IMG/VR virus record: IMGVR_UViG_2639763115_000001
Coordinates: 1 to 12,696 of that record
Direction: 5' to 3' (one strand)
Length of the DNA: 12,696 bases
Origin: a virus
Taxonomy: Duplodnaviria > Heunggongvirae > Uroviricota > Caudoviricetes
Shown here: in pieces, positions 155 through 12,239 of the stretch
Position numbering within the stretch: the stretch's first letter is position 1
How the letters are laid out: every line of letters begins with the position of its first letter
Notes under the pieces: generated by a model
What the model saw: only the letters and a program-made list of their open reading frames with translations
Told to the model about the DNA's origin: nothing
The model's database searches: none
Position numbers and translations under genes: made by a program

Positions 155-364
155 ATGGCTTTCATTCCACCAACCATCGACGATGTTAGACATTGCTCTA
201 ACGCTTTATCTGTAGACCCCGCCGAAACCGACGCTGCCCGCGCCATTGCTGAACACTACTCAAAGATATCCAATCAGGAGTACCGCATCACCCAAGACGA
301 CCTGGATGACCTCACTGACACAATCGAATATCTCATGGCCACTAACCAGCCAGACTCACAATAA
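155..364 (+). CDS. Small, highly acidic hypothetical protein (69 aa)
   Basis: ATG at 155 preceded by GTGAGG SD 7 nt upstream. 14 Asp/Glu versus 4 Arg/Lys (net about -10). No family recognised. Confidence 0.5.
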   Translation: MAFIPPTIDDVRHCSNALSVDPAETDAARAIAEHYSKISNQEYRITQDDLDDLTDTIEYLMATNQPDSQ

Positions 365-474: not shown

Positions 475-1326
475 ATGATAAATTATGTCTACGGCGAACA
501 ACTGTACCAGGAGTTCGTCAGCTTCAGGGATCTCTTTCTAAAAAAAGCTGTTGCACGCGCCCAACACGTTGATGCCGCCAGCGACGGTCGTCCTGTACGC
601 CCGGTTGTCGTTCTGCCGTTCAAAGAAACGGACAGCATTCAGGCTGAAATTGATAAATGGACTTTAATGGCGCGGGAACTGGAACAGTACCCAGACCTCA
701 ATATCCCAAAGACTATTTTATATCCTGTGCCTAACATCCTTCGCGGTGTGCGTAAGGTTACGACCTATCAGACAGAAGCTGTAAACAGCGTCAACATGAC
801 CGCTGGCCGCATTATTCATCTGATTGATAAGGACATTCGCATCCAAAAAAGCGCGGGGTTCAATGAGCACAGTGCGAAATACATAGAGAACCTGGAAGCA
901 ACAAAAGAGCTAATGAAGCAGTACCCGGAGGATGAAAAATTCCGTATGCGCGTACACGGCTTTAGCGAAACAATGCTGCGCGTTCACTACATCTCCAGTA
1001 GTCCTAACTACAATAACGGTAAATCAGTTAGTTACCATGTGCCGCTGTGTGGCGTGTTTATCTGCGATGAAACTCTCCGTGATGGAATCATCATCAACGG
1101 TGAATTCGAGAAAGCAAAATTTAGCCTTTATGACTCCATAGAACCGATCATCTGCGACCGCTGGCCACAAGCAAAAATATATCGCCTGGCAGATATTGAA
1201 AATGTAAAAAAACAAATTGCCATCACTCGCGAAGAGAAAAAGGTTAAGTCAGCCGCATCAGTTACGCGCAGCCGTAAAACCAAGAAGGGGCAGCCAGTAA
1301 ACGACAACCCCGAAAGCGCGCAATAA
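475..1326 (+). CDS. Hypothetical protein (283 aa) with a Lys/Arg-rich C-terminal tail
   Basis: ATG at 475 with strong SD GGAGGAGG. Long clean ORF ending 3 nt before a hairpin terminator. No family recognised by eye. Confidence 0.7.
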   Translation: MINYVYGEQLYQEFVSFRDLFLKKAVARAQHVDAASDGRPVRPVVVLPFKETDSIQAEIDKWTLMARELEQYPDLNIPKTILYPVPNILRGVRKVTTYQTEAVNSVNMTAGRIIHLIDKDIRIQKSAGFNEHSAKYIENLEATKELMKQYPEDEKFRMRVHGFSETMLRVHYISSSPNYNNGKSVSYHVPLCGVFICDETLRDGIIINGEFEKAKFSLYDSIEPIICDRWPQAKIYRLADIENVKKQIAITREEKKVKSAASVTRSRKTKKGQPVNDNPESAQ

Positions 1327-7415: not shown

Positions 7416-7538
7416 TCACTTAATAAAACAACTCCATGCGTAGTTGATGATTTTTTCCCACGCAATATAAATCTGCACTCCAGCAGTAAAACCAAAGCCT
7501 ACAATTGCTGAAAAAATCAAAACATTTACTTTTGACAT
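7416..7538 (-). CDS. Small hydrophobic peptide (40 aa, MSKVNVLIFSAIVGFGFTAGVQIYIAWEKIINYAWSCFIK)
   Basis: Not in the ORF track. Weak SD. Stop lies 8 nt before the ATG of the downstream 97-aa gene. Confidence 0.25.
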   Translation of the reverse strand: MSKVNVLIFSAIVGFGFTAGVQIYIAWEKIINYAWSCFIK

Positions 7539-7586
7539 TATAAAATTTCTCTCGGTGTCGTAGGTGATAGCACCATAATTGATAAT

Positions 7587-7919
7587 TTAGTGAGTTAGCA
7601 GCTTCATTTTTTTGATGATTTCCGCATGAGCATCATCGTTATCAACACTTAGCTCGTTTAATGCTTCTCGCACTACATCAACTTCTTCAGGCTGAAAGAA
7701 GTCGTCGCGGTAATCACCAAATAGAACCGAAACCAGCCTGGCACCAGCAACATCAAGATTAGCGCTAACAGGTGGCTCGATATCTCGCCCACAATTCCAG
7801 GCTTTTTGGGCTTCTTCCAGCGTGTAAACATGAGCGCGATCGATATCAGAGCTGTAACCATTGCCGTTATGGCAATGGAATGAAGCGTTATTACCCACAG
7901 TTTCACGCGAGCACATCAT
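7587..7919 (-). CDS. Hypothetical Cys/His-containing protein (110 aa from ATG)
   Basis: Track ORF starts on TTG at 7961 and would overlap the upstream gene by 32 nt. First ATG (MMCSRE…) lies 10 nt after the upstream stop. Cys3, His15, Cys16, His17, Cys43 near the N-terminus. Confidence 0.5.
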   Translation of the reverse strand: MMCSRETVGNNASFHCHNGNGYSSDIDRAHVYTLEEAQKAWNCGRDIEPPVSANLDVAGARLVSVLFGDYRDDFFQPEEVDVVREALNELSVDNDDAHAEIIKKMKLLTH

Positions 7920-7929
7920 GTAAAAACGG

Positions 7930-8511
7930 TTACTCACTGGTTGCCCCCTGAATACGCTCAAACTCGATTACCCAAACCCAGGGATTAGCGTTCCAACTTT
8001 CTTCGCCATAAATTGATTCCCATAGGCTACGGAAACCTGGGTAATGCTTATCGCCAATGAGGGTAAATTCTGTTGGTGCGCCCTCAGCCCTTGCATCGCA
8101 TTCGCTGATATCGTTCAACCGCTCAACGCGCACGTTGGTAATTTCCAGCAAAATGCGCGATGCCCAGCGCGGCATGTGAATTGATGGCGTCCACTTTTCT
8201 GATACTGGCTTATTACAAACCTCAACCGGAACCCGGTGCGTTTGTTCTGTCCAGGAGTTACGCACGCTTGCGCGATAAACCAGCGTTGCGACGTCCGTCG
8301 CTTTGCCATGTACCCGGTAGGTTTCACGAACCCAAATACGATCTCCCGGTTGACCATATGGACAATGTTTAGCAAGCAACTCTGCGGCCACTGCCCGTCC
8401 ATAGAATTTTTCTTCAACAATCCTGCGAGTCTGTGTTTTATTCCCGCCAAGAATTGCCCGGACCATCTCATCGTTGAAAATCATGCCGCGCTCTTTCACT
8501 TCGCCTTTCAT
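7930..8511 (-). CDS. Phage protein, tentatively ASCH-like domain (193 aa)
   Basis: ATG at 8511 with AAGGGGGA SD. The MIFNDEMVRAILGGNKTQTRR … PGDRIWVRETY pattern recalls ASCH-type phage proteins; assignment from memory. Confidence 0.65.
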   Translation of the reverse strand: MKGEVKERGMIFNDEMVRAILGGNKTQTRRIVEEKFYGRAVAAELLAKHCPYGQPGDRIWVRETYRVHGKATDVATLVYRASVRNSWTEQTHRVPVEVCNKPVSEKWTPSIHMPRWASRILLEITNVRVERLNDISECDARAEGAPTEFTLIGDKHYPGFRSLWESIYGEESWNANPWVWVIEFERIQGATSE

Positions 8512-8520
8512 GCATCCCCC

Positions 8521-8607
8521 TTACCCATGCGCGACAATGCCGCCAAAAGTGATAGAGAACAGCCAGAAATAGATCGCGGCCATAATGATTTTGAATGCCG
8601 TGTTCAT
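8521..8607 (-). CDS. Small hydrophobic peptide (28 aa, MNTAFKIIMAAIYFWLFSITFGGIVAHG), first ORF of the operon
   Basis: Not in the ORF track. Consensus AGGAG SD exactly 8 nt upstream of the ATG. Ends 10 nt before the next gene. Confidence 0.3.
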   Translation of the reverse strand: MNTAFKIIMAAIYFWLFSITFGGIVAHG

Positions 8608-8634
8608 ATTTTCAGCTCCTGTGATTGATTGGAT

Positions 8635-8666
8635 ACATGCCGCGCCTTGCGGCATGTTTTTATTTT
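8635..8666 (+). terminator. Strong hairpin (9-bp stem ACATGCCGC/GCGGCATGT, 5-nt loop) followed by TTTTTATTTT on the plus strand; terminator-like in plus orientation, or a 5' UTR stem-loop of the minus-strand operon
   Basis: Read directly. On the minus strand the stem is preceded by an A-tract and has no U-tract, so it would not terminate minus-strand transcription. Confidence 0.45.
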
Positions 8667-8676
8667 CACTTTCTCT

Positions 8677-8706
8677 GTTTTAAAAATCAATATTTATTAG
8701 AGCAAT
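8677..8706 (-). promoter_or_regulatory. C1-repressor-operator-like site ATTGCTCTAATAAATAT (8690-8706) overlapping a putative promoter (-35 TTGCTC, 17-nt spacer, -10 TAAAAC at 8677-8682)
   Basis: 16/17 match to the P1 C1 operator consensus ATTGCTCTAATAAATTT as I recall it. Overlaps the HAD gene stop codon by 1 nt; lies upstream of the 28-aa ORF and ASCH-like gene. Confidence 0.55.
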
Positions 8707-9212
8707 TATTGTTGATGGAGAAGCGCGTTTTCATACTCCCTGACCATTAACGTAAGCACGCCGTGCCTCCTGAAAACACGCGCCACTTCAATCTTATCTT
8801 CCAGCGCGAACGCGATTTTACTTAGACCAATTTTCTTAAGGAGATCAATCTTTGCTGGGCCGTCATTTCTGTCATCGGTGGCAGGACGCATAGATAGCAA
8901 AGGCTCAGCCCCGTTTGTTACGTACTTCCGCAGCCAGGCTCGTGTTTTATCCCTTGCGATCTCACAGCGCCCGGTTACAAACCAGACCGTGTAAACGTTA
9001 AATAACTGGCGCACAATATCAATAACTGGAGTTATGGGAGTATCAGTGTCACAGGCGAGATTAAACTCGTTCCAGTCCTTTGTTAATGCACCTTTACCTG
9101 GTGGCGGAAGCAAATGCAGTCTGTCTTCAGTTGCCTCTGATATTGTTCCATCAATATCAACTATGACGATATACGGACGTTCCTGGTGTGCGTGTTTATT
9201 GAAAATACTCAA
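8706..9212 (-). CDS. HAD-superfamily phosphatase/nucleotidase-like protein (168 aa)
   Basis: Motif I VIVDIDGT near the N-terminus, later T (WFVTGR) and K/DD-like positions. Only in-frame start is TTG at 9212, preceded by strong GAGGAGGG SD. Confidence 0.65.
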   Translation of the reverse strand: MSIFNKHAHQERPYIVIVDIDGTISEATEDRLHLLPPPGKGALTKDWNEFNLACDTDTPITPVIDIVRQLFNVYTVWFVTGRCEIARDKTRAWLRKYVTNGAEPLLSMRPATDDRNDGPAKIDLLKKIGLSKIAFALEDKIEVARVFRRHGVLTLMVREYENALLHQQ

Positions 9213-9230
9213 ATGCCCTCCTCATTGGAC

Positions 9231-9264
9231 GAAAAAAATGCTGGTGGGCGCACTCCACCAGCAT
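9231..9264 (-). terminator. Rho-independent terminator (10-bp stem ATGCTGGTGG/CCACCAGCAT, 7-nt loop, then T7 on the minus strand)
   Basis: Read directly. Lies between the 420-aa gene stop (9285) and the HAD gene start (9212), so it may act as an attenuator. Confidence 0.65.
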
Positions 9265-9284
9265 TAAAAGTGACACTGTAACTG

Positions 9285-10547
9285 TCAGCGAACGTAAATA
9301 GTGCCGCCGTTCTCTTTTTCCCATGCATCGCTACGTGCATAGCAAACATCGAGAAGTCTTCTTGCCGCTGTTTCCTCTAAACCCAATTCGACAACCAACT
9401 GCTCATGACGGCGGGTAACCACATCAAACAGGGTATGCAGCCCTTTAGCTGCCAGATCATCAATAAATTCCGGTTCGAACGGCAGCTCTGCATCTGCCAA
9501 CATAACCTCTTGCGCCCACTCGACACGGCGGACCAGTTCCGGGCGGCGGCTTTCCATCTCTTTACAGATCAATTCATGGAAGAACTCTACCCAACCTTCC
9601 GGCTGGAACTCGCGGAAAATGGCCAGCGGCTGGAAGTTTGGCATCAACCATTCGTTGATTCGGATATCAATGGCATAGCCCATGTCGCAGCAGAACTGAT
9701 AAGCAAAGTCCAGCTTAGAAACGATATAAGGACGCTCGTTATTGAACTCTTTAGGCGATGAGATCCCATAAGCCAGGAGGCGCGGGAAGAAGGAGATTTG
9801 CCCTAACGTCGGATGAAGTTTGCTTGCAGGGAAACGGCGCTCAGTAATGCCATACATTTCCTTCTTGAGCGTCGCAAATTTGGCATTCTCATTAACCAGC
9901 GCGGTAACCTCTGCTTTTTTATTAGCAAATGCCACGCGCGCTTCGCTTGCATCTTTAATAGTTTTTTTGAGCTGTTGGTTAAGATCGGCGACCTGCTTAC
10001 GCAGTTCCTGTCGCTCGCTTTTAGCTTTGTTATAGCGTTTCTCAAGGTTAAAAGGATCAAGTTTCATGATCTCTTTATATTGAGATTTTAGCGTTGAAAT
10101 CTGTGAGTTCCGCAGTTCAACCATCGCGGTCATTTCATTGAGTTTTGTTTCCAGCTCAATGCTTATACGTTCGGCATTATCAGCACGCTGGTTGGCGTCA
10201 TGCGTCGCATCGTCGATCGCGTCCTGTTGCTGGCGTTTCAAATGTTCAATTTGTAGCTGAAGCTCTTCAATTTCTTTACCCTTCAGACCGAGATCCAACT
10301 GCATATTTTCAGCTGCATCTACCAGGGAGTTATGGCTATCAGCTTCTGCGTTATAAACATCAATAAGCTGTGCGTGAAGCATCTCCGCTGACTGAACCGC
10401 ATTATCAAAAAAACGCGCTGTGAGGTCATCACAACTAACGCGGCGTTGCGCGGCCCGGATGTTCTGGATAATGGCTGGGATACCGGCATTCAGGACGTCA
10501 GGGATAGATACATTTTCGATTGATTGGTTTTGTGCTGAAGTGCTCAT
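9285..10547 (-). CDS. Hypothetical protein (420 aa): N-terminal ~230-aa coiled-coil, uncharacterised C-terminal domain
   Basis: Long ORF with ATG start. Heptad-like, charge-rich sequence (…EELQLQIEHLKRQQQDAIDDA…) from the translation. Confidence 0.7.
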   Translation of the reverse strand: MSTSAQNQSIENVSIPDVLNAGIPAIIQNIRAAQRRVSCDDLTARFFDNAVQSAEMLHAQLIDVYNAEADSHNSLVDAAENMQLDLGLKGKEIEELQLQIEHLKRQQQDAIDDATHDANQRADNAERISIELETKLNEMTAMVELRNSQISTLKSQYKEIMKLDPFNLEKRYNKAKSERQELRKQVADLNQQLKKTIKDASEARVAFANKKAEVTALVNENAKFATLKKEMYGITERRFPASKLHPTLGQISFFPRLLAYGISSPKEFNNERPYIVSKLDFAYQFCCDMGYAIDIRINEWLMPNFQPLAIFREFQPEGWVEFFHELICKEMESRRPELVRRVEWAQEVMLADAELPFEPEFIDDLAAKGLHTLFDVVTRRHEQLVVELGLEETAARRLLDVCYARSDAWEKENGGTIYVR

Positions 10548-10548
10548 T

Positions 10549-10767
10549 TCAAAGTTCCGTATTAGCTTGTGCTTCGGTCATTTTTCCTAAGTATGAAGGT
10601 GGAAGGACTACGCAATTTGTATCCAGTCCCTCACCTATGGCAGCCTGTAAAATTCTGGCTAAGGTGAGTCTCTTGTTGCGATACCTGGTGATTACATGCC
10701 TGATACCGCCGGTCGGCGTAACAAAGGCGATCAGCCAGTAGTGATATTTCCGTCGGAATGGCCACAT
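10549..10767 (-). CDS. Hypothetical small protein (72 aa), first gene after the operator/promoter
   Basis: ATG at 10767 with AAGGTG SD 6 nt upstream. Stop is 1 nt before the ATG of the 420-aa gene. Confidence 0.45.
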   Translation of the reverse strand: MWPFRRKYHYWLIAFVTPTGGIRHVITRYRNKRLTLARILQAAIGEGLDTNCVVLPPSYLGKMTEAQANTEL

Positions 10768-10781
10768 AGCGCACCTTGTAG

Positions 10782-10847
10782 ATTGCTCTAATAAAAAACG
10801 TGATGAGTGTACATCACGTTTTAAAAATATGAAATTATTAGAGCAAT
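10782..10847. promoter_or_regulatory. Pair of inverted C1-operator-like sites (10782-10798, plus orientation, 14/17; 10831-10847, minus orientation, 15/17) flanking an 11-bp-stem hairpin (10795-10822) that is a terminator for the upstream gene; putative promoter -35 TTGCTC / -10 TAAAAC on the minus strand
   Basis: Read directly. Outer 12-bp arms ATTGCTCTAATA/TATTAGAGCAAT are perfect inverted repeats. Inner stem AAAACGTGATG/CATCACGTTTT is followed by T6 on the minus strand. Confidence 0.55.
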
Positions 10848-10848
10848 A

Positions 10849-11550
10849 TTATTCTGATTCTCGCTCAAAAAATGAGCTGATAAGGGGAAGCCAATCCTCT
10901 GACACTTCGCGAGGTCGCGGTTTGCCGTGGAAAAAGATTATTCGGCAGTCTTTTGGTAATGCCCCATTCCCCCTGGAGTAACGCGCGCTCGCATATTTTG
11001 AACCAGGTTCCACAACATCGGCCTTGTAACTTACAAACCATCCTGGATACAGATCCTGAAATGCTGGTGTATCATCGCCCATAACCTTTCGTAAGAACCC
11101 CTGGTCACCCCAGCACTCAGTAGTGACACAACGAGAAATCCAACCTTCCGGATCTTGCCAGAATGAACTCCAGATATGCGCTTTTACACTATTTGGTATC
11201 CACAGGGCACCGCTACCACGATATTGTGGATGGTAAAAATCCCTAAGCATGGTGAAGCTGGTTGGTGGATTCTCAAGGATTGGGCGTATATCACCGGCAA
11301 TAACTGTGTCCAAATCCAGATAGAACAGATCATCTGTTATATCCGGTCGGAACAACTCGATTTTCGTCCACCAGCCACGGCACTTTTGCCACTGGTTGAT
11401 CAATGGGACAACTTTGACGCCAGGTACATGTAAACGCTTCAGGTCTGTCAGGCAAATAATTTCATAGCCTTTTGGCAGTTGATTAACCAGCCACTGCACA
11501 TCGGAAGCGTTATAGTCACCACCAGAGCGAAGAACTAAAGCAATCTTCAT
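10849..11550 (-). CDS. Hypothetical protein (233 aa), possibly a GT-A-type glycosyltransferase (DxD-like FYLDLDTV motif)
   Basis: ATG overlaps the ppp stop (ATGA). The functional guess rests only on the DxD-like motif and N-terminal beta-alpha start and is weak. Confidence 0.6.
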
Positions 11551-12239
11551 GCTGCACCATCACCTTTCACTTTCATCAATGTCAGGTTTCCGCAAAATAC
11601 GGCACCAGTGTCGATATAATGCTGATTCCAGAATGTCTTCGGGCTTTTCACCGGAGTGTGACCAAAGATAAAACGATCTGCGCCCGAAATTTCGCCACCA
11701 ATATCATCCATCGAATCACTGATACGCTCGCGCGCCCAGACAACGTTGAAAAGCGGCACCTCCTTACCGAATTGATATTCATTATCCGGATAGTCGGCAT
11801 GGGCTATAACGATAGTTTCTTGCCCGGTGTTCAACTCAATGATATAGGGCAGTCGTCTTACCAACTCCACCAGCGCCCTGGCTAATATTTCCTGATCAGC
11901 GTCCAGCATGAAGAACCATTGACCGCCATTCATTAGCCAATTATTCACGTTGCCATCAGGACTTAACGCATCAATCATCAGCTGCTCATGGTTGCCCATA
12001 ACCGCTCTGAACCATGGCATCTGCAATAGCTCCAAGCATTTAACATTTTCGGTGCCGCGATCGATAAGGTCGCCGACCGATATCAGTAAATCCTGCGCAG
12101 GGTCAAAATCCACACGATGGAGTTCGGACATCAGTCTGGTGTAGCAACCATGCAGATCACCAACAACCCAGATATTCCTGTATTTGGTACCGTCGATACG
12201 GTGATAAATTGTTGGTGCCATCATGTATTCTTCAGCCAT
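11547..12239 (-). CDS. ppp: Ser/Thr protein phosphatase, lambda-PPase-like metallophosphatase
   Basis: GDLHG, GDLIDRG, GNHE and later His motifs; near-collinear with lambda PPase from the IDG(T/S)[15 protein letters not shown] block onward. Start could be 12239, 12224 or 12221; the last overlaps the upstream stop as TGATG. Confidence 0.9.

Follow-up and report, generated by a model that had tools for sequence, protein, structure and literature searches.

The window, meaning the whole 12,696-nucleotide stretch of DNA that was analyzed (IMG/VR record IMGVR_UViG_2639763115_000001), is identified by megablast as a P1/P7-like element. Positions 7500-11600 belong to the P1 family, with 98.6% identity to P7 and Salmonella phage SJ46 and 98.1% identity to P1 over 80% of the query. 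Every gene of this region lies on the minus strand; the order is ppp, pmgQ/hdmD, pmgR, pmgS, pap, and a cassette of genes of unknown function. pap (8706..9212) encodes a HAD-superfamily phosphatase (Pfam PF25109 HAD_PNKP, E=6e-12) and is named Pap in the P1 and P7 annotations. The gene has no annotated promoter of its own. A strong intrinsic-terminator-like hairpin (9237-9265, minus strand), composed of an 11-bp stem followed by TTTTTTT, separates the pmgS stop from the pap start. When the whole window was scanned against Rfam at E<=1, a sole match was returned, to GcvB, which scored 20.3 bits against a gathering score of 42 and was taken as chance. An exact 13-nt direct repeat, CATATTTTCAGCT, is present at 8605-8617, across the start codon and spacer of a small open reading frame (ORF), and at 10302-10314, inside pmgS. 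This repeat is probably also due to chance.

The stop codon of pap (TAA, 8708..8706) shares its last A with the first base of a 17-bp C1 operator, ATTGCTCTAATAAATAT, located at 8690..8706 on the minus strand. From 8706 to 8677, this strand reads ATTGCTCTAATAAATAT-TGATTTT-TAAAAC. The consensus of the asymmetric C1 operator is ATTGCTCTAATAAATTT, and there are 22 C1 sites per P1 genome (PMC8546580). The 17-mer in the window matches this consensus at 16 of 17 positions, the only mismatch being at position 16. A first-pass annotation, made from the letters of the DNA, had proposed both this 16/17 match and its position against the stop codon of the HAD gene; both are correct, and the consensus that it used appears verbatim in PMC8546580. 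In the P1 annotation (GenBank AF234172), the homologous 17-mer is the "monovalent C1-controlled operator OpmgT", formerly Op88. The P7 annotation (AF503408) calls the Op88 equivalent Op(hea) and the Op86 pair, discussed below, Op(sht[a]) and Op(sht[b]). After alignment, the protein_bind features of P1 and P7 coincide with 8690-8706. By its sequence, then, this site is the known, annotated and conserved P1-family operator Op88, and nothing new. C1 binding at Op88 is reported for P1 by the GenBank notes and is expected, by analogy, for this element. A full-text literature search for Op88 and Op86 returned reference-list mentions only. Op88 reportedly stands in the title of a 1989 paper by Citron, Velleman and Schuster (J Biol Chem 1989;264:3611).

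Across the operator, promoter, and leader, the window shares 99% identity with P1 and P7. P1 Op88 has the same position at the pap stop, the same orientation and hexamers, and the same leader hairpin and small ORF (99% identity over a 221-nt alignment). Position 16 of the operator is a C in P1 and an A in the window. P1 carries a pmgT-pmgU-pmgV cassette, whereas the window is of the P7/SJ46 type from approximately 250 nt downstream. In P7, the 17-mer of Op(hea) and the 13 nt that follow are identical to the window and the first downstream gene, upf86.8, is the same, but homology to the window breaks near 7760.

A position weight matrix (PWM) was built from 14 other annotated P7 operators, with Op(hea) and Op(sht[a]/[b]) left out. 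With this matrix, 8690-8706 scores 25.3 bits, within the 15.1-27.0 bits of the training operators. The next highest scores in the window are those of 10831-10847 (21.7 bits), 364-380 (18.3 bits), and 10782-10798 (16.7 bits). Among 500 windows simulated with a first-order Markov model, the best score was 19.97, and none reached 20. A search of the window for ATTGCTCTAATAAATTT with up to 3 mismatches found 4 sites where 0.10 were expected. A functionless chance match in AT-rich DNA has the AT-richness of the region, and nothing else, in its favor. The number of matches, a PWM score above that of every simulated window, the orthology to annotated operators, and the two occurrences of TTGCTC-N17-TAAAAC where 0.00 were expected all speak against it, and this explanation, whose probability is negligible, was rejected.

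The operator is also retained in relatives. Through Pap, 80 IMG/VR loci were gathered, and in all 79 that reach past pap the operator directly follows the gene. The sole common variation in the operator among these loci is A or C at position 16. Among 48 unique relatives, column variability is 0.028 in the operator and 0.003-0.039 in its flanks; the operator is not better conserved than the flanks here because divergence is too low (93-99% identity). Cronobacter phage JK004 is more distant, with amino acid identities of 73% for Pap and 77% for C1. JK004 keeps all 17 bases of the operator, which overlaps the pap stop there too, while the surrounding DNA is only 49-51% identical. Op88 in JK004 amounts to a clean phylogenetic footprint, which is a further point against a chance match. 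Across the JK004 genome, the PWM finds 16 sites at or above 14 bits, and the Op88 equivalent scores best. Op86a and Op86b are each 16/17 identical in JK004.

P1 annotates two overlapping predicted sigma-70 promoters at Op88, P1pmgT and P2pmgT, both on the minus strand. The -35 of predicted P2pmgT is TTGCTC (8700..8705), which corresponds to operator positions 2-7, and its -10 is TAAAAC (8677..8682), 17 nt further on (spacer 8699..8683). Through alignment to P1, predicted P1pmgT spans 8662..8690 and consists of TTGATT (8690-8685), 17 nt, and GAAAAT (8667-8662), its -35 beginning at operator position 17. A P1pmgT transcript would start near 8655, at the base of the leader hairpin. The hexamers of P2pmgT match the sigma-70 consensus at 3/6 and 4/6 positions (7/12 in total, with no T at -7), and those of P1pmgT at 4/6 and 4/6 (8/12, with A at -11 and T at -7). 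A sigma-70 consensus scan of 8400-11000 called neither of them, nor the similar promoter at 10818-10846. The assignment of a promoter therefore rests on annotation and context and not on the quality of the hexamers. The sole nearby match of the scan, ATGAAA-18-AATAAT at 8734-8705, is at chance level (2 found, 3.6 expected) and was set aside. The promoter that the first-pass annotation placed on the operator is thus the P2pmgT predicted in P1, but it is weak, it is negative in the scan, and it is overlapped by a second annotated promoter that the annotation had not named.

Which of the two promoters fires affects how C1 would act. If it is the overlapping P1pmgT type and not TTGCTC-N17-TAAAAC, C1 would sit against the -35 instead of on it. 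Both promoters are annotated in P1, and P1pmgT has the slightly better hexamers and the A at -11 and T at -7. Its JK004 equivalent is TTGTTT-N17-AATAAT, with a -10 that matches the consensus at 5/6 positions and a GC hairpin 7 nt later. In some IMG/VR relatives, the -10 of P2pmgT drifts from TAAAAC to TAAAGC, TAAGGC, or TAAGAC, and in JK004 it reads TAAGGT. On the other side, the P2pmgT geometry is also kept in JK004, where the TTG-TTTTTAA block after the operator, whose TTTTTAA lies over the P2pmgT -10, is retained and the sequence beyond has diverged. The JK004 hairpin alone is not significant (z -0.4). Moreover, in 8 of 16 operators compared, the operator-borne TTGCTC-type hexamer is followed at exactly 17 nt by a hexamer that starts with TA, which argues that an operator-borne -35 is a general design. 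Firing from P1pmgT is a live possibility, though we lean against it.

These 8 operators are Op(dam), Op(c4), Op(rep), Op(ban[a]), Op(26), Op(hdm), Op86a, and Op88. In the window, TTGCTC-N17-TAAAAC is found at 8677-8705 and 10818-10846, and a direct-repeat search recovers 8677-8706 and 10818-10847 as a 30-nt direct repeat with 83% identity. The recurrence of the architecture, which the first-pass annotation had pointed out, is real. Its reading of the two promoters as duplicates of one another does not stand. Over the operator and -10 region, Op88 is closer to P7 Op(dam), the equivalent of P1 Op68 (26/30), than to Op86a (25/30), and because the architecture is common to the regulon, a private duplication of the two promoters was rejected. 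Op(dam) has the identical 17-mer, ATTGCTCTAATAAATAT, and is the nearest paralogue of Op88, but it lies at a different locus and serves different genes (hrdC, dam). The similarity between Op88 and Op86a is best described from these alignments as a regulon-wide operator-promoter module.

The second site is more elaborate than the first. OpmgRa (Op86a, P7 Op(sht[a])), ATTGCTCTAATAATTTC, is located at 10831..10847 on the minus strand (21.7 bits), and OpmgRb (Op86b, P7 Op(sht[b])), ATTGCTCTAATAAAAAA, at 10782..10798 on the plus strand (16.7 bits). Both are annotated in P1 and P7, and one base is changed from P1 and P7 at this second site. The predicted PpmgR lies on Op86a, with a -35 of TTGCTC (10846-10841) and a -10 of TAAAAC (10823-10818) on the minus strand by the P1 annotation, and serves pmgR (10549-10767) and pmgS (9285-10547), both on the minus strand and named in the P1 and P7 annotations. 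Whereas Op88 is a single operator, Op86a and Op86b are inverted, 49 bp apart from center to center, and bracket a terminator-like hairpin predicted by folding, ACGTGATG-loop-CATCACG followed by a U-run (10799..10821, minus strand). With the operator arms included, this hairpin folds at -26.9 kcal/mol (z -9.7). The A-run of Op86b, its deviation from consensus, is the U-tract of the terminator on the opposite strand. The hairpin and its U-run resemble a terminator for the upstream pmgN-pmgQ operon. The PpmgR -10 overlaps the 5' arm of the hairpin, so transcripts derived from pmgQ would hold the whole terminator and those started at PpmgR would not. In JK004, a hairpin of different sequence with a U-run is found at the same place. 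The first-pass proposal of two repressor-controlled sites is supported in that Op88 and Op86a are both annotated C1 operators; the inverted Op86b and the hairpin had been missed.

Published P1vir RNA-seq data bear on the timing of these genes. In the wild type at 10 min, log fold changes are 7.05 for pmgQ, 9.02 for pmgR, 9.99 for pmgS, 8.45 for pap, 9.72 for pmgT, and 9.84 for pmgU (supplement of PMC8201110). At the same time point, the values for ssb and ref, two known early genes under C1 control, are 7.53 and 8.29, and those of late genes range from 0.2 to 6.1 (PMC8201110). At 10 min, pmgR-pmgS and pmgT-pmgV have thus already reached high levels, as have ssb and ref (PMC8201110), and the description of both promoters as early fits these values. 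The step-ups from pmgQ to pmgR and from pap to pmgT coincide with the predicted positions of the two promoters. The lower value of pap than of pmgS fits partial termination at the 9237-9265 hairpin.

The same data bear on a different role for Op88, in which C1 would mainly act as a roadblock that stops pap read-through into the cassette, and the block to initiation would be secondary. The pap stop overlaps the first operator base, there is no terminator-like site between pap and the operator, and the asymmetric operator points along transcription. In mycobacteriophage L5, asymmetric operators reportedly stop elongation (PMC1934351). These L5/L1 stoperators are, like Op88, asymmetric repressor sites, many and dispersed and some in transcribed regions (PMC1934351), but their repressor and motif are unrelated to C1, and no report of an elongation block by C1 was found. 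Little read-through may arrive at Op88 past the terminator-like hairpin upstream of pap, and the rise from pap to pmgT in P1vir needs a promoter at Op88. A role confined mainly to blocking read-through has, in our estimate, a slim chance of being correct. As an addition to a block of initiation, C1 at Op88 may still hinder read-through from pap to some extent, given that the two are not separated by a terminator.

Downstream of Op88, the 5' leader of the transcript would contain a GC-rich hairpin (8635..8657); the leader folds at -18.3 kcal/mol (z -3.7). On the plus strand, 8635-8657 reads as an intrinsic-terminator-like stem followed by TTTTTATTTT, which is antisense to every neighboring gene. 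The hairpin could stop antisense transcription or serve as a 5' stabilizing stem-loop of the sense transcript. As a conserved structure it was not accepted, and it is left as a lead: JK004 shares a GCCGC/GCGGC core but shows no compensatory change, and its z-score is the -0.4 given above. The first ORF after Op88 (8521..8607, minus strand) has an AGGAG Shine-Dalgarno sequence and encodes a small hydrophobic product of 28 amino acids (MNTAFKIIMAAIYFWLFSITFGGIVAHG). SJ46 annotates it as a "membrane protein" with a longer start, P1 AF234172 leaves it unannotated, and neither PHROG nor Pfam gives a match. A small hydrophobic ORF that resembles it is found at the equivalent place in JK004. The leader and ribosome binding site upstream of the 28-amino-acid ORF (offsets 76-105) are the most conserved stretch among the 48 unique IMG/VR sequences, with a mean column variability of 0.003.

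The first larger downstream gene (7930..8511, minus strand) is P7 upf86.8-like and belongs to phrog_874; its 193-amino-acid product, of unknown function, has no Pfam match. PHROG assigns the genes after Op88, without exception, to families of unknown function. In P1-like phage-plasmids, pmgT to humD is one of eight hypervariable regions (region 8) (PMC9603915). Consistent with the variability of this region, homology of the IMG/VR loci to the window or to P1 spans 160-280 nt past the operator, a distance that takes in the promoter, leader, and small ORF. Past this point, at least three cassette types are found among the IMG/VR loci: the P1 pmgT type, the P7/window type, and a third.

The cognate repressor gene lies in the same window. 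c1 (475..1326, plus strand) encodes a 283-amino-acid protein that is identical to P1 C1.100 at 280 of 283 positions. Upstream of it, in a near-identical copy of the P1 immC region, are coi (155-364, plus strand) and the plus-strand operators Oc1c/Op99c (192-208, 9.9 bits) and Oc1a/Op99a (364-380, 18.3 bits). Downstream of c1 and its terminator-like hairpin comes an ant/kilA-like fragment (1369-1502), which is fused to a truncated pdcB/upf95.7. The ant fragment is 134 nt long and approximately 90% identical to the 3' end of P7 ant1/ant2 (region 1327-1502; the pdcB part is 1471-2370). In P1, P7, SJ46, and JK004, lpa, pacA, and pacB, together with Op(lpa), lie between c1 and pdcB. They are absent there in the window, where c1 is joined to the truncated pdcB through the ant-like fragment, so that lpa, pacA, and pacB are missing. 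The element, as read from the window, lacks the late-gene activator and the packaging enzyme at their normal place.

Identical DNA is carried by plasmids. At least eight plasmid matches, from Salmonella, E. coli, Shigella, and E. albertii, cover the full length of the window at 100% identity. In NZ_CP104485.1 and NZ_CP070289.2, IS1 delimits the P1 segment next to c1, IS1 or IS30 delimits it next to ppp, and tet(A), blaTEM-1, and other resistance genes adjoin it. NZ_CP104485.1, the one identical plasmid that was checked in full, has no lpa, pacA, pacB, repL, ban, dam, ssb, sit, S, or lyz, and no tail or lysis genes were found in it. Still present in it are c1, lxc, and cre, along with the major head gene and a partition/replication region of the P1 type. 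In contrast to P7, which is a complete phage, the plasmids identical to the window are degraded hybrids. The PLSDB tables of two matching plasmids list protein-coding and predicted resistance genes only, and the genes of the segment are mostly hypothetical.

Such carriers raise the question of whether Op88 is now a relic in a degraded mosaic resistance plasmid without lytic growth. It would then be permanently occupied or irrelevant, and the downstream genes would never be induced as early genes. The plasmid identities, the insertion sequences that bound the segment in the two plasmids examined, the genes missing from NZ_CP104485.1, and the deletion of lpa-pacAB within the window itself all fit this explanation. 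Against it, c1, coi, lxc, and all operators of the segment are intact, which leaves the circuit complete. In P1, Coi has a link to SOS (PMC4713147), so derepression could still occur, and the evidence on gene loss comes from NZ_CP104485.1 as the only identical plasmid checked at full length. We regard a relic as unlikely, though it deserves a hearing. The first-pass expectation that the downstream genes are silent in the prophage and switched on at induction agrees with an intact C1 circuit, but it presupposes an inducible prophage. With lpa, pacA, and pacB missing in the window and repL in NZ_CP104485.1, "prophage induction" may not apply to the actual carrier.

Taken together, the most probable account, in which we have high confidence, is that Op88, bound by the C1 of the element itself, represses the operon behind pap and that Op86a and Op86b do likewise for pmgR-pmgS. 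C1, made 7 kb away in the same window, would bind the asymmetric 17-bp Op88, which covers the -35 of predicted P2pmgT and lies directly against that of P1pmgT, the second, overlapping predicted promoter. With the operator over or against these hexamers, bound C1 should exclude RNA polymerase, and we infer steric exclusion at the -35. RNA polymerase would then be barred from the start of the post-pap operon, which is composed of the leader hairpin, the 28-amino-acid ORF, and the variable cassette. Op86a, backed by the inverted Op86b, would control pmgR-pmgS in the same manner. When C1 activity is lost, through Coi, Ant, or a thermolabile C1, both promoters would be released early.

As a discovery, the site carries little weight, for it is a named and annotated operator in a temperate phage that is among the best studied. 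The useful outcome is that Op88 was correctly recognized from sequence alone. For annotators of P1-like resistance plasmids, the P1 operator map is directly transferable. In a more speculative reading, to which we give a low probability, the operator, promoter, leader hairpin, and 28-amino-acid ORF would form a conserved, C1-gated "expression head" for swapped cassettes, with breakpoints at 160-280 nt. c1-coi-lxc would still gate the cassette in degraded plasmids, possibly providing immunity to incoming P1-like phages. If this is true, the small ORF and the hairpin would have an undescribed role of their own, such as transcript stabilization or translational coupling. Any insert that lands behind Op88 in this hypervariable region would come under C1-controlled early expression.
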